This document shows, in pieces, positions 4,004 through 61,900 of a stretch of 64,000 bases of DNA. How positions within the stretch are numbered: position 1 is the stretch's first letter; each line of letters starts with the position of its first letter. The notes under the pieces were generated by a model. It worked only from the letters and a program-made list of their open reading frames with translations, was not told where the DNA came from and searched no databases. The stretch is from Minutocellus sp. GHC0000111. Lineage: Eukaryota. The stretch lies in the NCBI GenBank assembly GCA_977018835.1, contig OZ361261.1, positions 1,860,001-1,924,000 on the forward strand, given 5' to 3'. The translations under genes were made by a program, and so were the position numbers.

Positions 4004-4402
4004 GGCAACGATGTGTGACTACGAATCATACGACTGTGTGTTATGAATGAATGAATGAATGAAGAGCATGCCATGCGTGGAGGCAGTCAACGCAACGAGC
4101 AACGTCTGCAAATACATGTACTGGAAACGGCACAGCGGGCGGTGTCCCTCGCCATGTTTGGGTTGTGCTTATTTATTTTTGGCTCTGGCCACGCCACTCG
4201 GCGAAATTGAGAAACTTCACCGATTAAATGCGTTCTTTCCGTCGTCCGTTTCCATTACGTTTTCGACCGCCCAAGTTCAACCATCATGCACCGACCGTAC
4301 CGCCGATAGCAATTGCATCGTCCCTGGCTCGGCCTCCCAAGCACTGCTGCTGCATTTCTCTCCATTCATATACACAGCACACACAAAAATATATAAGCCA
4401 CC

Positions 4403-6340
4403 ATGCCCACTCTAGCGGTAAACCGCGACGATCTGTTCGCGCACATCGGCCGAACGTACTCCGACGAGGCCTTCGACGAGCTTTGCTTCGAGTTTGGGGT
4501 GGAGCTCGACGAGATCACCTCGGAACGGGAGGAGGCATTGAAATCCTCCACGGTCAAGCTGTCCAAGGATCAGATCAATGCGTTGAGTTCTTCCGTGATT
4601 TACAAGATTGACGTTCCCGCCAACAGGTACGATCTGCTGTGCATCGAGGGATTGAGCCGTTCGCTCAAAATTTTCCTGGGCGACATGGAGGCACCGGTCT
4701 ACACCAAGACGACGCCCGACAAGATGGAAACCATGACGGTCCAGCAGGAAACGACCGCCACGGTCCGGCCCTTTGTCGTCTGTGCGATTTTGAGGGACGT
4801 CACCTTCACCCCCGAGCGGTATGCCTCCTTCATCGATCTGCAGGATCAGCTCCATCGCAACCTCTGCAGACAGCGGACGCTGGTGGCCATCGGCACGCAC
4901 GATATGGATGCCGTGAAGGGACCCTTCCATTACGACGCCCGCAAGCCCGACGACATTGAGTTCGTTCCCCTCAAATCCTCGGACGATACCGCCGGTCAGG
5001 CCTTCACCGGCCGGACCCTCCTGGAACACTACGAGACCCATCCGGATTGCAAGCATCTCAAGCCGTACGTGCCCATCATCAAGGACTCGCCCCTCTACCC
5101 CGTCGTCCTCGACAACGAAAACACCGTCCTGTCCCTGCCCCCCATCATCAACGGCGACAAGTCCAAGATCACCCTCGACACCAAGAACGTCTTCATCGAG
5201 TGCACCGCCACCGACCTGACCAAGGCCAACATCGTCCTCGACACCGTCGTTACCATGTTCTCCGAGTACTGCTCCCAACCCTTCCAAATCGAGCCCGTGC
5301 AGGTCAATTACGTGGATGCCTCCGGGTCCACCACCAACTCGTACGTGACTCCCGAGCTGCCTACCCGCCGCGTCCAGGCCGGGGTGGACTTCATCAATTC
5401 CATGATTGGCATCCAAGAGTCGGCCGATCGCATGGTCGAGCTGTGCAACAAGATCCAGCTGGGTCCGGCCTCCCTCGAGCAGGGACCCGATGGCAAGCAG
5501 ATGCTCGAGGTCAGCGTCCCTCCGACGCGATCGGACATTTTGCATCCCGTGGACATTGCCGAGGACGTGGGCATCGCCTACGGATACAACAACATCGTCA
5601 AGAGGGTGCCGCATACCAACACCGTCGGTGGAGAACAACCGCTGAACAAGCTGGGCGATCTGCTCCGCGATGAGATTGGCCGGGCGGGATACACCGAGGT
5701 CCTCACCCATGGACTTTGCTCCATCCGAGACAACTTCACGGCCCTGCGCAAGCAGGTGACCGCCGCCGTCAGCCTGTCCAACCCGGCCAACGTCGAGTAC
5801 GAGGTGGTCCGGACCACCCTCCTCCCCGGACTCCTCAAGACCCTCCAGCACAACAAGTCGGCATCGTTCACGTCGGGATTCAAAATCTTTGAAATCAGCG
5901 ACGTCGTCCTCCCCGACGATCGGCACGCCATCACCGGCACCGTCGTCGGCGCCCGCAACGAACGTCGGCTGTGCGCCATCTACGCCGGACCTACCTCGGG
6001 CTTCGAGATCATCCACGGCCTCGTCGACCGCGTCCTCACCCTCACCGAGGTGGCCCCCGAGGAGGAGTACGTGTCCAACTCGACCAAGGGCGACGAGGAG
6101 AAGTTCCGCGTCGCCCGGGAGGGGTGGTACTACACCATCCGCGAGTTGAAGGAGGGCGACGACGATGCCGGCACCTACTTCCCCGGCCGTGCCGCCGAGA
6201 TTCTGCTCACCAGCCCCGCCACCGGTGGGGAGCGGGTCCGGATCGGTACCTTTGGCATCCTCCATCCGGAAGTTTTGGGCGCCTTCGACGTTGGCTACCC
6301 GGCAAGTTGCCTGGAGATCAACCTGGAGCCATTGATGTAA
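4403..6340 (+). CDS. FARSB: Phenylalanyl-tRNA synthetase beta subunit (cytosolic)
   Basis: MPTLAVNRDDLF, FDELCFEFGVELD, IDVPANRYDLLCIEG, QDQLHRNLCRQRTLVAIGTHD, PPTRSDILHPVDIAEDVGIAYGYNN, VVRTTLLPGLLKT. Confidence 0.97.
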   Translation: MPTLAVNRDDLFAHIGRTYSDEAFDELCFEFGVELDEITSEREEALKSSTVKLSKDQINALSSSVIYKIDVPANRYDLLCIEGLSRSLKIFLGDMEAPVYTKTTPDKMETMTVQQETTATVRPFVVCAILRDVTFTPERYASFIDLQDQLHRNLCRQRTLVAIGTHDMDAVKGPFHYDARKPDDIEFVPLKSSDDTAGQAFTGRTLLEHYETHPDCKHLKPYVPIIKDSPLYPVVLDNENTVLSLPPIINGDKSKITLDTKNVFIECTATDLTKANIVLDTVVTMFSEYCSQPFQIEPVQVNYVDASGSTTNSYVTPELPTRRVQAGVDFINSMIGIQESADRMVELCNKIQLGPASLEQGPDGKQMLEVSVPPTRSDILHPVDIAEDVGIAYGYNNIVKRVPHTNTVGGEQPLNKLGDLLRDEIGRAGYTEVLTHGLCSIRDNFTALRKQVTAAVSLSNPANVEYEVVRTTLLPGLLKTLQHNKSASFTSGFKIFEISDVVLPDDRHAITGTVVGARNERRLCAIYAGPTSGFEIIHGLVDRVLTLTEVAPEEEYVSNSTKGDEEKFRVAREGWYYTIRELKEGDDDAGTYFPGRAAEILLTSPATGGERVRIGTFGILHPEVLGAFDVGYPASCLEINLEPLM

Positions 6341-10412: not shown

Positions 10413-10564
10413 TAATCGAATTCTGCCAGGAATACGAATTCCCAATACTGCTAAAAGAATGCTACGGGACTCGCACCCGCACAACCGGTTAACTACTCAG
10501 CGCATTCAAGCACGGAAGGCAGTCTCTACTTATGAATGCTAAATTCCCCGGCTGATTTTGTCTA
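10413..10564 (-). repeat. LTR copy (3' LTR in minus orientation)
   Basis: TAATCGAATT...TTTTGTCTA on + strand; 150/152 identical to 10751-10902. Confidence 0.95.
10456..10507 (-). ncRNA. Putative 52-nt tRNA-like RNA in the LTR (second copy at 10794-10845)
   Basis: GAATGCG-20 nt-GCGGG/TGCGAGT/CCCGT-AGCATTC-T-TTT: acceptor-like stem, 5-bp T-stem with 7-nt loop, discriminator, then a U-run. Confidence 0.5.
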
Positions 10565-10750: not shown

Positions 10751-10902
10751 TAATCGAATTCTGCCAGGAATACGAATTCCCAATACTGCTAAAAGAATGC
10801 TACGGGACTCGCACTCGCACAACCGGTTAACTACTCAGCGCATTCAAGCACGGAAGGCAGTCTCTACTTATGAATGCTACATTCCCCGGCTGATTTTGTC
10901 TA
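10751..10902 (-). repeat. LTR copy (5' LTR in minus orientation)
   Basis: Direct repeat of 10413-10564. Confidence 0.95.
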
Positions 10903-11221: not shown

Positions 11222-13204
11222 TCACTCTGCCGTCTTTTTCTTCTTCTTCCGCCGCCGAGCCTTTGCCGCCTCGGCCTTTTGTCGAAGCATTTCCATCTTT
11301 TCTGCTTTTCTCTTGGCCTCTGCAGCGGCAGCCTCTGCCTCTGCAGCGGCCTTGGCAGCCTCCTCTTCGGCTTGCCGTAATTCATCTTCATCGTCGACGA
11401 CAGTGTCGGCAGCATCCCAACCCTCTGGGACAAACTCCGATGCATCGGCTCCAGACTCCACGATGCCCATGACGGCACCGCTGTCTCTTTCAATCCCCGC
11501 AAAAGCTTCCACCTCGGCGTCAAACATGTTCAGTCCATTCTTGAAACGACGGCACGGTAAGCTCTGTAACTTGCCAATCGCATTGGTTCCTTCAACAATT
11601 ACTTCGAGACCATCTAACGGATCCACGGGTGGTGGCAACGGCGATTGGCCGGCTCCCTGAGCTTCGATATCAATTCCGCCACCGAGCTGCAAACCCATTG
11701 GCTCCATCTTTGACAGTATCGAATCAGGCCGGCGGATGAGCGTCAGACCGACAGTTGTGGGCTCTCCCGTACCACCTTTTTCTGCAATCGATGTGATCAT
11801 ACCGGCCTTGATCTTGCCAGCAGAACCAAGTACGTAGATGTCGTCACCAGGGATAGGTTGTTTCGAGCCACTCTCATCACTAAAAGGAGAGGTAGCATCG
11901 GCACCGAGCAACGAAGCAAGATCCATCATATTGTCGTCGCCCAGATCATCTGCCGGCGAAGTACCATAGGCATTATTATCCTCATGAAAGACCACCGAAT
12001 AGAGTGACCGAGGAATGCCCCTCTTGTTCTTGAGTAGCGCCGATATCGCTTCTTGGCCTAGATAGCACCCCTTGGTTTCATCTACTGCAGACTCAAGATG
12101 CAGCTCCAGCGGACTCGCCTTGGCTCCCACACCAATTGCTGCATTTTCGCCACCAGCACCATCATCCTTATCGTTGTCTGGATCGATGTCACCAGTCATT
12201 TCACGGCCATATGCCGGCCATCCACCTTCAATGCGCAATGTTTCCCATTCAAGAGGACCAAGCTCCACTGGTGCCTGATCATCGAACTCGGCAGTGAGGG
12301 CATCCCAAATGCATTGAGCTGTATCTCCATTACCTGTTCCAGATATCACGAATGTGTACCCCACACATACACATTCCGGCAAGAAAGTAGACGGCAAAAT
12401 TATGATATCGGTGCCATCGTCGGTCGATACTCTGGTGCACTCTCCACGTTGTGGCAGCGTGAAGCCCACCGACAAATTCAGATTGGACGTCACATATCGC
12501 ATTACCGATTCCTCTACATGGCTCAGCTTGGTCGCGGCCACAGTGATAACCCGAGTGGGTGCCTTGGATGTGTCCATCATGTCGGTCAATTTCACACCGT
12601 CCATGGGAAACACGTAGGGGTCCAACCGATTGAACAACGTCGATCCACCATGACCAGGTGACGTGAGGAGATATGCTTCGGATGATTCATCATCATCGTT
12701 CTCACTCAGGCTAGGAAAGAGTGAAACTGATATTCTGTCAACAGTCCGACCTCTTGGCGTCAACAAACAAGAGTCCACCAGCTTGCCATGGCCGTCACTT
12801 TTGGTGCCACCTTCCAAATCAAAGGAATTGCTCAACTTGCCCTCCAAAAATTGCTGGACGCCGCTACCATCGACTTTCACAACTCCCACACCAAACTCGT
12901 CGTGGGAGGTAAAGTCGATGCACACCCCGTTGGGTGAACGGAGTGCCGATCGGACGGCCTCACCGCGCATCCCGGCGGGCAGCTCTCGGGGGAATGTCGA
13001 TGCCAGTTCATCTGACTTTGCTTGGGCGCTGTTGTTGTGGGAGGTACTAATATCGGATGACGCACGAAGCGCAAGTGATGAGATCGGAAGACGATGGTTC
13101 GGCCTGCATGTGCTCGTTTTGGGAGTGAAGGAAAAAGCAGCACATGTTATTATTTGGGCCCCAACGAGAGCCAGAAAAGCGACGCTTTGGGGAGGGAAGG
13201 CCAT
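11222..13204 (-). CDS. YgfZ/Iba57-family folate-dependent protein (GcvT fold), probably plastid-targeted
   Basis: Signature KGCYLGQE; LLTPRGRTVD; ETLRIEGGWP. N-terminal signal peptide ending CAA-F followed by a Ser/Thr-rich transit-like segment. Confidence 0.88.
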   Translation of the reverse strand: MAFPPQSVAFLALVGAQIITCAAFSFTPKTSTCRPNHRLPISSLALRASSDISTSHNNSAQAKSDELASTFPRELPAGMRGEAVRSALRSPNGVCIDFTSHDEFGVGVVKVDGSGVQQFLEGKLSNSFDLEGGTKSDGHGKLVDSCLLTPRGRTVDRISVSLFPSLSENDDDESSEAYLLTSPGHGGSTLFNRLDPYVFPMDGVKLTDMMDTSKAPTRVITVAATKLSHVEESVMRYVTSNLNLSVGFTLPQRGECTRVSTDDGTDIIILPSTFLPECVCVGYTFVISGTGNGDTAQCIWDALTAEFDDQAPVELGPLEWETLRIEGGWPAYGREMTGDIDPDNDKDDGAGGENAAIGVGAKASPLELHLESAVDETKGCYLGQEAISALLKNKRGIPRSLYSVVFHEDNNAYGTSPADDLGDDNMMDLASLLGADATSPFSDESGSKQPIPGDDIYVLGSAGKIKAGMITSIAEKGGTGEPTTVGLTLIRRPDSILSKMEPMGLQLGGGIDIEAQGAGQSPLPPPVDPLDGLEVIVEGTNAIGKLQSLPCRRFKNGLNMFDAEVEAFAGIERDSGAVMGIVESGADASEFVPEGWDAADTVVDDEDELRQAEEEAAKAAAEAEAAAAEAKRKAEKMEMLRQKAEAAKARRRKKKKKTAE

Positions 13205-13267
13205 CGTTTCAAAATGAGACCGTCATCTTGCCGCTTCTATGAGGTTAGTTAGGTAGTTAGCATTATA

Positions 13268-16200
13268 CCAATGACCCCAAAAAGACGTGTCACAACCAGC
13301 CCTCGAAAAACACCTCTGTCATTTCTCGTGACTTGGTCCGTTGGGGAACACCTTTCGGTTTCAGAGGATTTGTAGAGGGTATACCAATAACCCCTAAAAA
13401 AGGTCATTCTTGCACCCATTTCTCATTTCCCACCAGGTGTTTTGTTAGTCGACATTCTCTTCGGGAGGAACGCAAACACTCCTCAACTCGTGGATATCTA
13501 CTGGACCTGCTCATTCAGTAGGTTGCCACCGACCAGTAGTATCCACTGAATTCGCAGGTCCAGTAGATTCTGGCAGGAACACATGTATTTTTTGGTCCCC
13601 CGCACAACACCCCCCCTCTCAACTCACACACACCGCAACCCGCAAATTTTGTGACGAAGACGACGACCAACCAGACCACGCCCAAAAAATACAAACGCAG
13701 CAGAACTTCGTTCTCAGGGAGCAAGAGAGGCAACTCCAAGGCATCCAGGAAGGCGGCAAAGGCGGCAGCTGAGCCGAAAACACCATCGCCGAGCGCAAAC
13801 ACGTCGAAGAAGCGGCCACGGTCGTTCGTCTCAAATTCGCCGCCCGCCAAACCGTCACCGTCGTCGGCGAAGAAGAGGACGGCCCCTCCTCCTATCCCCA
13901 TGGCCTTTCTCCTTGCAGCAGATGTCATTCGAAGGGCTGGTAAGGATCTGTGGTGGAGAGCAACCCCCGATTCCTGCGGCAAAGATGACATTTTTGTGTT
14001 GGTTCTCGGCAGAAATGGGAAGACGTCCTCCCCCTGCTTTCATCGAGGCCGACTTGTTGCGTTCCAAGTCCGTCGGTGGAGGAAAGCATGAGCTACAGTG
14101 CAACGAGGAAAAATGGAAGGACATGCAGCAACATCTCAAGGAGCGTTGTAGTTTGAAGTTGCACTTGTCGACGCATCGGCCGAGAGGGAAGACAAGACGC
14201 AGGGCGCTTTGTGTTTGTGCTCACAGGTTGCGCAAAAAGAAGGAGGACAACCACCCGAAATTCTCTGGACCGGAGGGACAGAAGGTGCACGAGAAAAGAA
14301 ATCCCGATGAAGTTCTGTTCTCTGGGCGCTCGACTGTCTTAGCTACTAAACTAGGTGAGAGGTTGTCAGCTCACAGAAAGGAGGTGCAGTCAGCGCATTG
14401 CGAAGCAAGAGCAAAATCACTAGTCGACGAGGCCAAGAAACTGGGTTGGATGCCAGCAAGTCTCCTCAGCATGCTGAAGGGAACTGGTGATGCTTCCGCC
14501 ACTGAAGCAGCTGCAGCCTCCCCCAATGATGAAGGTTTAGGAGAGGAGCCGACACTTCCGTTGTCTCTGTGCCACCTCCAGTGACATTGATGAACAGGTG
14601 AAGGTCGCGCTCTCGGCCTCGACTTTGTTGTTCGGATGGCCAACGATGACATGCTCCGTCCTCCTCGTCCCAATGCAACCGTCACCGAACCAACACCAAT
14701 CAGAAAAGAAAAAAGCAGGCGAATGAAAGAATGCGGTTCAGCGCCGTGGCTCTCGCGGATTGGTGGGGATGCGGCGACCCAACTCGCACGCATGAAGACC
14801 GGCAACAAATTGCAACTGCCGCGCGTGTCGGCAAGTTGCTGCGCACGATCACGGTTGTGCCAAGTCAACCGGTGGTTCTCAGCTTTACAAGTGGAGAGAC
14901 CAGCTCTACAAAAGCCTTGCTGATGGCATCAGCAATCCCATCGGCAGAAAGGAGGTTCGTGGAAGGAAGGCATGCACGGACATGATCGAGGAGAAGGAGC
15001 CAGGATGTCTCCGCGAGCTGCATCGGTGTGCTGCTCGGATGAAGGGTGCGATGGCAACCTTTAAGGAGGAGCTAGCTGACTGCATGAGCGCAAAATCAGC
15101 TACTCCAGATGATGAAGACAGGCTGACAATTAGTCTCCATCGTCTTCAGCTTTTTCGCTGGTGGAAAAAGCAAGGCGGTGAGGAGAAGTCGTCGATCGAG
15201 AAGCCGAGGCTCACCCCCGAACATTGCAGGGGAAGCGACTTGATTGGATCGAAAAGTGGGAGGACACCACGACCGATCCCAACATTCCTGTAGCGTGTCT
15301 TGATGAAAAGTGGTTTTACACTGCTACTCGGCGACGAAAGATCAAGATGTTGCCTGCCACTTTCTGACGAAGAGCTAAGCAGTCCGAACCTCGCGTCTGT
15401 CCATGCTTCCGAGGCAAGCCCGAAAATTCGATCCAGAAGACACCCTGTCAAAGTTGTGTGTCTTGGAGTTGTTGGCCGACCAATGAAGGATGAAACCAAA
15501 GACGTTGATTTCAATGGGCGCATCATGATCAAGAGAGTCGCCAGGGAGCAGAAGGTGGAAAAGCTTGCGCGTAATCAGAATTTCTCTCCAGATGCTAAGG
15601 TCAACGATGCGCTAAAAATGACAAAGATTGGCGCGACATTTGCGACGAGAATGCTGACATGACCGCCGGCCATCTTTGCGACCACATTGCCGAAATCTAC
15701 GGCCTTTCTGAGTTTGTTACAGAGCGATTGGAACTTCAACACGAGGACTATAAATCCGACGGTCAGGCAAAAAGTCGCAAGCATGCCGCTGTTGGCTACA
15801 ATCAAAAGTTCTCGAGTCTCAAGCGACACACACACTCCTGATAGCAATGGAGAGAAGGTGAAGGTTGAGATCGACGACCTTGAGCTCGGGGTGCGGTATC
15901 AACGGGGCGATAAGGTTACCAAGGACTGTAGCTGCGACTCCAAATGGATGTTGGAGACTATGAGAATGAGGTCGGGAAGGCGATTCGAGACGCACATCAT
16001 TGGGTGAAGTGGGATCCACAAAATATTCAGGAGTCTGATGTCATGTGTCTTATGATGGACAATGCCGGCGGTCATGGGTCCAATGAAGCAGTTGAGAAGT
16101 ACACCGAGGACCTCAAAAACAAATATAAGATTGAGATAATCCAGCAGGTTCCTCGGTCGCCCGAGACAAATGTTCTTGATCTCGGCATCTGGATGTCTTT

Positions 16201-16979
16201 GCAGTCGGCCGTTGAAAAGGAGCATCGCGGTCAGAAGAATGATGCGAATGCTCTTGACAAGACTGTGATGAAAGTGTGGGCCAATGTCGCATCAAAAGAG
16301 GCCTTTCTCAATGTATTTGGAAAACTTCCAGTGATATATAACAACATCAAGAGAAGTCGTGGCGGTAACAATCTTGTGGAGACCAGACGGGGAAAGGCTG
16401 GTGGTCTCTCGCAAAAATTGCCGAGGAAGAGAAGCTGAAGAGGATGGTGAACCACTCTGGCCAATTGATGCTCCCGGCGAAGATGATGACATTGAGGACG
16501 ACATAGATGAAAATGATGAAGACGATGGAGTCATTGATTTGCTATAACTTATCATAGCATGTCCATTTCTATTCATTACATTTTGATTTGGTTGGTGCTT
16601 CCATCCAAAAATGTGTTTTTTCCCGGGGTGAGGAATGTGCAAATGTCGAAAAAAATCATCACATAATGTACATTTATTGGTTCTGGTGCACAATATCTCT
16701 CGACTATATGTAGGCCTAGAAGTTGGTGACCATAACTTGGTTCTTGCCCCGACTTCCATCTTGGCCGTCATTTATTCCTCGGAGTTAGAAATAGTGAGCT
16801 TGGATTTTTGGTCTGGTGTGGTCGTGTTTCTAATACGTCATCATCGCGTCACTTTCAAATCCTCTGAACTCGAAAGGTACCGCGGCAAGCAAGATAGGAA
16901 GATACCGGCCCGAGAGGCAACACATCATAGCCACACAGACGCAACGACCCCCCTCTACAACTATTATATTATCCATTGG
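13268..16979 (+). mobile_element. Decayed Tc1/mariner DNA transposon, DD39D (plant-mariner-like) type; ends uncertain
   Basis: Frameshifted transposase with LDEKWFYT (D at 15302), KVVCLGVVGRP, MDNAGGH (D at 16058) and PRSPETNVLDLG (D at 16178); 39 residues separate the last two Asp. Only short candidate inverted ends were found. Confidence 0.75.
13900..16547 (+). pseudogene. Fragmented DD39D transposase
   Basis: Successive + strand fragments (13913-14584, 14982-15293, 15300-15662, 15659-15841, 15687-16007, 15944-16438) end in an acidic tail and a stop at 16547. The 5' limit is approximate. Confidence 0.75.
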
Positions 16980-58926: not shown

Positions 58927-61900
58927 ATGAAGGAGATAAAAAAGATGAAGGTGGTCGAACTCCGGGCCGAGCTAAAGCGGCGGGGTTTGCCCACCGACGG
59001 ACTCAAGGCGGTGCTGGCCGCACGGTTGCAGGACGACGAGGACCAGAAGCAGCAGGCGGAGGCTGCTGCTGTTGAAGAGGCACCTGCTGAAGAGGCAGCT
59101 GCTGAGGAAGAAATGGAGGTGGATCAGGAGGAACCAAATGCCGAAACTGCACCAGAGCCAGAAGAGGAGCCCGCGGCCGCTCCAGCTGAGCCGGCACCTG
59201 CGGTCGAACCGGTGGAACCAGCCAAGCCGGAGGAGGCACCGGTACCTGTACCAGCGCCAGCGGAGGAGGCGGAGGAAGACAAGATGGACGTATCCGGCGA
59301 TGATGACGAGGACGATGAGACGAAGGAGGCAGAGCCGGAGAATAACAACGGCAAGGAGGCCGAGCAAGAGAAGCCATCGGCGCCGGCAGAGGAAGCCAAG
59401 GCCGAGGAAGAAAAACCGGCGGCTGAAACAGCTGCAACTGCTGCGTCGGCGGCGCCTCCACCCCCGCCTCCTGCCCCAGTGACTGCGGCGCCAGCTCCCC
59501 CAAGCGCCGGCATTCAGCTGACCCCCGAAATCTCCTCCCTCCTCAACGCGGCCACGTCCCATCTCGAAACCCACCGCGTCCACCTGACCGAGCTGGAATC
59601 GTCCCTCCTACTATCGACCACGCTGCTCCGACATCCGGAGGGACGGTCCACTGCCCAGGCTACGAAGTTGCCAGGAGCGGTGAGAGACGCGTGGCACGCA
59701 CTGGGAGATGGCTGCCGGCCGATGGGACGGGAGGCCGCCGCTTCCGGAGAGGACTTGGGCGTGCTGGGCATCGAAGCGGCGGGTGCTGCAACTACATCTG
59801 CAGGAGGTGGCGCTGCTACCAGTGGTGGTGGGGAGGATGGGGGCGGTGCCAAGCCCGGCGATGGGATGGAGGTCGTCGTCACCCCCGGCCAATTGGGGGT
59901 GGCATCCCGTTCGGCGGCGCTGTCCACCGCCATCCATCGGGTGGTCGAGGTGTCGCAGCAGTTGGCCAAGACGAAGAATGGCGATGTAGAAGGAGGAGGA
60001 AAGAGCGAACAGCAAGTGCAGGTTGTCCGGGACGTAACGGACATGCTCCGCCAGATTGACGACGTGGCCAAGGAGGCCGAGGAGGCTGCTGCTGGTGGTG
60101 AGGCTGCTGCTGGCAGTGGTGGTGCCAAGATTATGGGCGCCGCCATCAATACCACCAAGGGATCGACCGACGTCCTCCTCGAGGCGTTCTACGCCCGCCT
60201 TTCCGAGGTGCGGGAGTACCATGCCAAGCACGAGGTGGCCGAGGACGCCGTCATGGCGGCCGTTGGTGGTGGTGGTGCAATGCCCGCCGCCGCTGCTACC
60301 GCTGCCGACGATGCTGCCATGGATATCGACGAATCGTCCCGTCAAAAGATACTGGCCCTCACGCAGGGTTCCAAACGGCGCAAGATCCGCCATGGCAACC
60401 CACAGGCCGATGGGTACGATCTGCACTCGCTGCTGCTGACGGAAATGTCCAAGGTCCGCGGAGGAGATCTGTACAGTCCCCAGGAGGTGTTTGGCAAGTA
60501 CCTCGATCTGACCGATGTGCACGATGGTCTGGCTGCCGGCGTGGGGGGTGGAAGTAGTAGTGGTGGAAGTGCCACGCTCCGGACGGAGCTGGCCAAGGTT
60601 GCTGCTGCCGCGTCGGCGTCGACATCGGCGGGTTCTGCAACGGCCAAGCCAGCGGCGTCCTCCGCCGACATGGAAGAAGAGAAGAAAGATGACGATGGCG
60701 CAAGTGCATCCGTCGCATTTCCCTACGTCGACTTCCTGTCGCTCCTCACCCAACCTCTGGGCACGCTTCTTCCCGAACCCACCAAGCTCAACAATCGCAA
60801 GGCGTACGTGCGATTCCTTTCGGCGCTGTATGACTACCTCCTTGGATTCCTTCGCCGGACGATGCCCCTGCTCGATGTCGAAGGGGAGGTCATCCGACCG
60901 GCGATGGACGAGTTCGAACGGACATGGGGTGAGACCGGGGGCTATCCAGGGTGGGAGAGCAGGGTGGCTGAAAAGGTGTTAGCATCGACGTCCTCCGGGG
61001 AAGGTAATGCCGAATCTTCAACATCGTCTGCAAGCACTGGCACAAACATTGACTTGGCATCCTACACCGGCCCTCAAGAGCTTTGTGATGCCATCGACGC
61101 CGATACTCTTAAGGCCGAACTGTCCCGCATCGGGCTCAAGTGCGGCGGTGCACCGCTTGATAGGGCCAAGAGACTCTTCCTCCTCAAGGATACAGCCTTA
61201 TCTGATCTTCCTAAGATGGTTTGGGCAAAGGGACGCGGCCCTCCACCTCCTACAGCTGCTGCCGATGGCGACAAAAAGCCCGAGGGAGCGTCAGATGGTA
61301 GCGACGGCGGTACCAAGGCTTCGGTATCCTCGGCATCCTCTGCCCTCACTTCGTCCTCTCTTGCCGGATCGTCTCGACGAATTGACGTCTCCCGACTTGA
61401 AGTAGCGACACAATCATTGCTTGGCCAGCTCCGTCCCACTCTGGATGCTACCGTCCGCCGTGCCGAGCGCCAACTGTACCAAACCTCCAATGAGCGAGAG
61501 AACGAGCTCGATGAGGAGATCAATGGCATCGCCGGAGTGCGGGGAAAGAAACCCAAGGATGGCAAGGACAAGGGCGACGAAGAGGATGGGGACAGTGACA
61601 ACGACAGCGACGAGGAGGATGCACCCATCTACAATCCCAAGGGCGTACCTCTTGGTTGGGACGGCAAACCCATCCCATATTGGCTCTTCAAGCTGCACGG
61701 CCTAAATCACTTTTACTCGTGTGAGATCTGCGGCAACGAATCCTATCGTGGCCGGCACAACTTTGAGAAGCACTTCCAGGAGTCCAAGCACGTCTACGGA
61801 ATGCGATGTTTGGGCATCCCCAACACCCGTCACTTCCATGGTGTTACCAAGATCGAGGATGCGCAGCATCTATGGGCCAAGTTGCAGCAGACTGTTGAGG

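Follow-up and report, generated by a model that had tools for sequence, protein, structure and literature searches.

In the current study, we analyzed a 64-kb stretch of DNA (64,000 nt, here called the window) from a likely diatom and found that a region devoid of RTAY tetranucleotides sits within a 3.5-kb Tc1/mariner-type DD39D transposon (13351–16877). We are highly confident that the substitutions in it are real and represent a context-specific A:T>G:C hypermutation of this transposon family. Hypermutation of this kind has been described once before, in another lineage, and occurs here with new variant features. The direction of change (Tyr to Cys or His), a context of 5′ T and 3′ pyrimidine, strand symmetry and zero double hits are all seen in the data, with host genes and the final 830 bases of the element mostly untouched. 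With modest confidence, and on sequence evidence, we propose that a putative host TadA/ADAT-like enzyme deaminates the A of TAY in transposon copies, on both strands and after insertion. The documented transposon-mutating defenses that we found act on cytosine, and an A:T>G:C equivalent is described in the available text of one 2026 preprint, in a rhizarian alga and mainly in viral inserts (Mettrop et al., bioRxiv 10.64898/2026.01.13.699255). New here are the signature in a likely diatom and in a cut-and-paste transposon, the copy-by-copy states of its sites, and support from short reads.

The transposon and its RTAY-free stretch

The features on which the analysis draws are as follows, with strand where one applies.

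4397–6340, plus strand: control host FARSB ORF (Pfam)
13349–13350: left target-site duplication, reading CA; the empty site has TA in RTAY context
13351–13372, plus strand: left terminal inverted repeat (repeat search; 23 nt, 91% complementary to 16856–16878)
13657–16547, plus strand: decayed transposase gene, start codon lost (tblastn to P0002, P0003 and P0027)
13693–15895: RTAY-free stretch (count of TA contexts)
13693–16048: hypermutated zone, TAY>TGY on either strand (window and copies)
15302, 16058 and 16178 (15302–16180), plus strand: catalytic D, D and D codons (window translation; P0003)
16050–16877: 3′ part retaining most RTAY and Tyr (window and copies)
16856–16877, minus strand: right terminal inverted repeat (repeat search; a near-identical end followed by TA occurs in L001)
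16878–16879: right target-site duplication, TA (sequence; joint of the empty site)

Contigs of sequencing runs X1, X3 and X4 join 13348 directly to 16878, leaving an empty site with one TA, and the insertion is therefore polymorphic. The left duplication reads CA and may itself have been mutated after insertion, an anecdotal case of a single site. Contig depth over the element exceeds that over its flanks about 100-fold (12209 vs. 117 in X1), which shows that the element has many copies, depth not being a copy count. The run majority at 13658 restores the ATG start of the transposase, and in the homologue P0003 the second and third catalytic Asp are separated by 39 residues, giving the DD39D signature. 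With the PlantMar (DD39D) family of IS630/Tc1/mariner elements the transposon shares the TA duplication, short inverted repeats, a length within 2–6 kb (here 3.5 kb) and the DD39D spacing; the likeness is by features described in the available part of the source (PMC7325037). The family is known from plants and stramenopiles, according to the same partial source. Pfam returned no DDE match for P0002 or P0003, and a PDB sequence search for a transposase alignment matched 0 structures. Two intact homologues, 852 and 961 residues long, match the 3′ query at 96% and 88%; the Tyr content of intact homologues is 3.4–3.9%. For one host gene, the two relatives with a name are diatom sequences (Stauroneis constricta and Nitzschia inconspicua, identity about 42%), which makes the host a likely, though not a firmly placed, diatom. 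On the left flank (12800–13348), X1 and X4 contigs carry six extra letters, probably close to the insertion site; on the right, contigs of the same two runs start exactly at the TA (16878), and filled and empty alleles may coexist in the runs.

A preliminary description of this DNA had reported about 29 TA dinucleotides and zero RTAY between 13693 and 15895, abundant CpG, about 15 RTAY in the FARSB coding sequence, and three ORFs (13913–14584, 14982–15293 and 15300–15662) lacking Tyr. An exact recount reproduced all of this: the stretch holds 29 TA (0 RTAY, 11 YTAR, 6 RTAR and 12 YTAY), with an observed/expected ratio of 0.25 for TA and 0.93 for CpG, the FARSB ORF holds 15 RTAY among 32 TA, and the three ORFs are Tyr-free. 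The difference that it had predicted between repeat and genes was also found, with 0 of 29 TA in the stretch vs. 39–47% of TA in RTAY context in four host ORFs, a comparison of one transposon family in one window. The window as a whole contains 696 RTAY (10.9 per kb), and its longest RTAY-free gap is the one at 13689–15896 (2207 nt), the runner-up measuring 859 nt. Outside the element 33% of TA are RTAY, from which the probability of 0 in 29 is 8e-6, uncorrected for the post hoc choice of the stretch. At a local 5 RTAY per kb, a gap of this length is expected once per ~100 windows, and at 3 per kb it would be nothing unusual; the case therefore rests on comparative data and not on the count alone. 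Base composition (GC 0.53) was rejected as the cause of the loss, since RTAY persists in host ORFs with a higher GC content. The second-longest gap (59290–60149) lies in the GC-rich part of an ORF with SF3a60/SAP domains and is probably compositional.

Spectrum, copies and sequencing error

The direction of change was set by 466 columns in which P0027 and P0003 carry the same residue, sequence contexts being taken from the window's own neighbors. The window differs from the shared residue in 35 of them: 19 are A>G changes at TAY, 1 is A>G at TAR, 2 are A>G outside TA, 7 are C>T, 2 are transversions and 4 are ambiguous. A:T>G:C transitions thus make up 22 of the 31 unambiguous changes, with 20 of the 22 at TpA and 19 at TAY. 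Per nonsynonymous opportunity up to 16050, changes occurred at 19 of 27 TAY, 1 of 11 TAR and 2 of 277 non-TA positions (Fisher p 6e-22); beyond 16050, TAY was changed at 0 of 11. Of 20 A>G/T>C differences listed against the run majorities at the DNA level, 16 fall at TA and 15 at TAY, in a context count that took in 31 of the 40 places listed among 61 that differ; in X1, a G or C of the window stands against an A or T of the run majority at 28 of 43 places. Twelve of the TAY changes are on the coding strand and seven on the opposite one, in accord with the earlier reading of TAY→TGY and TAY→CAY as A→G on either strand of TpA, and the spectrum against a reference is TA-biased, as that reading predicted. 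Cys or His had also been noted at three motifs expected to be aromatic; intact homologues do carry Tyr there, with His in P0003 at the third.

The apparent target is TAY on the edited strand; YTAY is altered as well, by A>G only. Within 13693–15895, ATA/TAT (4 observed vs. 42.9 expected) and GTA/TAC (14 vs. 46.9) are depleted and CTA/TAG (25 vs. 32.6) hardly is, a pattern that points to TAY on one strand. RTAY would be lost first because it presents a target on both strands. The preference for RTAY proposed in the preliminary description is therefore right in that RTAY vanishes, but the motif appears to be the one-strand TAY, and YTAY is also hit. Likewise, the return of RTAY and Tyr that it placed after 15896 corresponds to a spared 3′ part, but across copies the zone extends to ~16046. 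The reverse direction, in which CA or TG became TA in the homologues, was rejected on two grounds: distant homologues conserve the Tyr, and a site at which both Cys and His occur must have started as Tyr. DD39D elements transpose without an RNA intermediate, and RNA editing copied back into DNA was rejected on that ground and because both strands are equally hit.

Other copies of the element were compared as 41 listed fragments plus the window, drawn from protein clusters, one of which is represented by 15 of its 28 members. Forty fragments lie on ENA contigs of 0.26–5.3 Mb and unstated platform; they probably share their one or two source assemblies with the window, each is broken, and a single copy may be represented by several of them. 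The remaining fragment, P0175, lies on a 1642-nt JGI contig, likewise of unstated platform. The data are at the protein level, where nonsynonymous sites alone are visible; P0075 (an unrelated cluster entry) and 15 ‘L’ calls at site 816 (where the pattern matched elsewhere) were dropped. Up to 16046, the 11 RTAY Tyr codons that vary are called Cys 46, His 48, Tyr 15 and Arg 0 times, so that 94 of 109 are changed within the zone vs. 2 of 33 at three RTAY codons past 16050; P0175 is derived at 8 of the 11. At three further RTAY Tyr sites, all copies seen have His (8/8, 15/15 and 14/14). Six YTAY Tyr codons gave Cys 6, His 1 and Tyr 32, a skew to Cys that is expected where the coding-strand A is the sole target, and two of the YTAY codons are unaltered in 10 of 10 copies. 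Each of the 11 variable RTAY sites is Cys in some copies and His in others, and each of the nine copies with at least five derived sites mixes the two. Irreversible parsimony on nine copies and 13 sites required 43 events, vs. 20 without homoplasy and 44 ± 2 in 300 column shuffles. The site states are thus assorted as if independent, with no signal of shared descent among the copies; this fits separate mutation of each copy, and heavy gene conversion would give the same pattern. The lack of Arg is what sequential real mutation predicts, as TA>TG leaves the opposite strand's A without a 5′ T.

Long-read base-calling errors at a modified base of the transposon, left unpolished in an assembly of unstated platform, might in principle have made both the substitutions and the insertions described below. 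Untrained modifications gave thousands of mismatch errors in nanopore genomes, according to the available part of one report (PMC10687267). In line with such an origin, the run majorities are without the window's insertions, no long contig among the listed X1 and X4 pieces is identical to the window copy, and the long-contig fragments break at varied places. However, contigs lose rare variants, so that an absent copy proves nothing, and strand-specific miscalls predict copies that are all TG or all CA, or CG if the miscalls are independent, whereas every one of the nine informative copies is mixed and the 109 calls include no Arg. Derived alleles are, moreover, present in P0175 and in the Illumina RNA run X7, short reads being among the checks that the preliminary description had proposed. 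X7 has the His-type CA at 15027–8, and at 14694, 15785 and 15995 it shares the derived base of the window, as inferred from how many letters differ in its contigs 29 and 30 (3 and 4, respectively, all assigned to listed places). Three of these sites are T>C on the coding strand, a change that editing of a sense transcript would not produce. Both alleles occur in X7 at 14919 and the ancestral base at several places (e.g., 15567, 15642 and 15740), as expected from variation among copies. In X1, X3 or X4, 14 of 15 TAY places listed show the window allele at 3% or more of depth, vs. 0 of 10 other places; these shares cover 25 of ~61 listed places, are distorted by contig ends, and come from runs of unstated platform, of which X1 may be the source sample. 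Outside the element, X1 shows 0 differences in 423 nt of flank, and over ~970 nt of flank 1 base and one 6-letter gap, vs. ~40 differing places in the element. The window's PTR2 protein differs from P0096 exactly as does the Logan protein P0161 (residues 37–625). The derived alleles in an Illumina run make a base-calling artefact unlikely for the substitutions, and such errors are a very improbable source of substitutions and insertions together.

The insertions themselves are a separate matter. Relative to P0027, the coding region has 16 net insertions of 2–5 nt and one 1-nt deletion. Eleven insertions are of +2 and, by one count, three are of +3, the rest being +4 and +5; none is of 1 nt. 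Sizes of 2–5 nt with none of 1 are unlike long-read homopolymer error. Most of the insertions duplicate adjoining bases, and the run majorities are without those listed; other long-contig fragments are broken at varied places, several of them with in-frame duplications. The single-base loss falls in an A run, is shared by five fragments or copies and resembles a long-read error. The reality of the insertions is about evenly balanced, and error confined to them comes close to an even prospect. No link of the duplications to TA sites was seen by eye, with 1 of 17 (15826) at a former TA. Elsewhere in the window, a 152-nt direct repeat (10413–10564 and 10751–10902) has two differences between its units, neither of the TA>TG/CA type, and is too short to inform.

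Mechanism and relation to known systems

In the mechanism that we propose, a putative deaminase would turn the A of TAY into inosine in inserted transposon DNA, and the inosine would be copied as G at replication, fixing A>G on either strand. The first hit, from TA to TG or CA, would remove the 5′ T needed by the opposite strand's A, so that CG would never appear. Most hits would strike each copy separately, and some would be inherited from progenitor copies, as the three Tyr sites that are His in every copy seen suggest; the outcome would be an inactivated transposase. Chromatin, small RNA or transiently single-stranded DNA might guide the enzyme to its target. According to the available parts of two sources, TadA-derived editors make A>G/T>C changes at TA with a preference for 5′ T/U (PMC13225742), and native TadA requires UACG (PMC12296453). 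Given real substitutions, adenine deamination is a reasonably probable chemistry. The repeat-targeted adenine process with an RTAY preference suggested in the preliminary description is thus partly supported: it keeps its TpA-bound A:T>G:C changes on both strands and its sparing of host genes, and exchanges its motif for TAY, its adenine chemistry, targeting by repeat homology and role in defense being hypothetical. The spared 830 bases at the 3′ end, the 5′ end and the two unchanged YTAY codons are unaccounted for by the deaminase model.

The spectrum is strand-symmetric, and an A lesion in TAY and a T lesion in RTA would leave identical sequence. All of the spectrum data consequently fit equally well a transposon-directed lesion on T (in RTA) or error-prone repair, with the small duplications as a second repair product. 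Such a lesion might be T oxidized to 5-hydroxymethyl- or 5-formyluracil, which mispairs with G; such repair might be the patching of transposon chromatin by a low-fidelity polymerase. TET/JBP enzymes modify thymine, and 5-formyluracil mispairs. The 2–5 nt duplications of adjoining bases, mostly off TA sites, would not be explained by a pure deaminase; on the other hand, they may be artefacts, and the TA(Y) motif agrees with the known TadA preference. We consider a T lesion or error-prone repair unlikely, while giving it appreciable weight. Another possibility is that a few changes arose in progenitors, by general bias or by selection against internal TA (the element's own target), and were spread by gene conversion. 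The three RTAY Tyr sites that are His in all copies would fit such a history, as would the presence of two catalytic Asp codons in the spared 3′ part, which selection might predict, and gene conversion also erases tree signal. Against it, the occurrence of both Cys and His at every variable RTAY site means that each was hit at least twice, and the hits include Tyr conserved in distant homologues, beside the first catalytic Asp. Intact homologues have 3.4–3.9% Tyr, host genes retain RTAY, and selection cannot yield a context difference of 70% vs. 0.7%. Progenitor changes of this sort are accordingly an improbable account.

The nearest precedent for deamination of the proposed kind is the chlorarachniophyte Bigelowiella natans, known to us from the available text of the preprint cited above (Mettrop et al., bioRxiv 10.64898/2026.01.13.699255). 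In two viral inserts, 230 of 231 de novo mutations were A>G/T>C, all of them on TpA, at a rate near 6e-7; TpA-poor coding sequences were enriched for DDE endonuclease and reverse transcriptase domains, and an ADAT2-like deaminase was proposed as a candidate. As far as that text goes, the two cases are alike in TpA>TpG and TpA>CpA changes on both strands, restricted to foreign or selfish DNA, and the signature, which had been treated as unprecedented in the preliminary description, already had this antecedent. Our data show the same combination of both-strand, TpA-bound A:T>G:C change (Cys 46 vs. His 48) with spared host genes. The hosts differ, B. natans belonging to Rhizaria and the host here likely being a diatom (Stramenopiles). 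The targets there are integrated NCLDV/virophage DNA, the large insert being single-copy, and here a multicopy cut-and-paste transposon compared copy by copy; the rate was measured de novo in B. natans lines and is inferred here. The preprint's main text, in its available form, is without a 3′ base preference, a spared element end or small duplications, all three of which we report. A literature search for a diatom report of TpA hypermutation found none, most subscription papers being outside its reach.

Fungal RIP, of ascomycetes and basidiomycetes, is similar in that dinucleotide-specific transitions wreck transposon ORFs while host genes are spared. RIP is homology-dependent and premeiotic, and requires an RID-type methyltransferase. 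It consists of C>T changes that create TpA, whereas here TpA is removed by A:T>G:C. The C>T signature with raised TpA was not found, TA being at 0.25 of expectation and the direction being set by Tyr in the homologues; the earlier statement that RIP runs in the opposite direction holds, with Tyr ancestral. The pattern works like RIP and is not RIP. TadA/ADAT2 enzymes and TadA-derived editors share with it the A>G/T>C change and the preference for 5′ T/U, in the available text of both reports (PMC13225742; PMC12296453). The natural substrate of TadA/ADAT2 is tRNA, and the DNA activity of TadA-derived editors is engineered.

The TAY motif, the rule that a first hit blocks a second, and the spared 3′ end are constraints for any candidate enzyme, and since diatoms are culturable and editable, the enzyme could be found. 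A natural DNA adenine deaminase, if this is one, would interest the fields of genome evolution and base editing. TA-poor and Tyr-poor transposon remnants in such genomes are liable to be misdated, and overlooked by RIP indices. Taken further, one could imagine a diatom adenine counterpart of RIP in which a TAY DNA deaminase saturates new copies, repair leaves duplications of 2–5 nt, and missense and frameshift together kill the element, an extension that we find doubtful. If true, it would, together with B. natans, imply an A-to-G genome defense common to SAR lineages and a naturally evolved DNA adenine editor.

Related elements and structural variants

A metagenome scan for DNA of related elements yielded one confirmed locus (L001; JGI contig, 1–548) from 388 candidates, and scans of viral (0/13) and prokaryote (0/142) sequences yielded none. 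Only the 3′ end of the element is present in L001, where 17 of 42 TA are RTAY and no depletion is seen. Among near-identical members of sister transposase families (clusters of P0027, P0042, P0005, P0009 and P0091), 9 of 79 variable sites in eight families are Tyr/Cys or Tyr/His, vs. 0 of 20 in a host gene, with p between 0.002 and 0.10 as set by the assumed base rate. These differences may reflect the same process at lower intensity in related hosts, but the contrast is too slight to count as evidence.

Two structural variants of the element were also observed in the runs. In one X1 contig (depth 213), positions 13993–14078 give way to an 18-letter segment with telomere-like TTAGGG repeats in it. 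Other contigs, from X1 and X4 (depth 50 and 116), skip 2140 bases at 13791–15932, and probably represent an internally deleted, non-autonomous derivative without most of the hypermutated zone.
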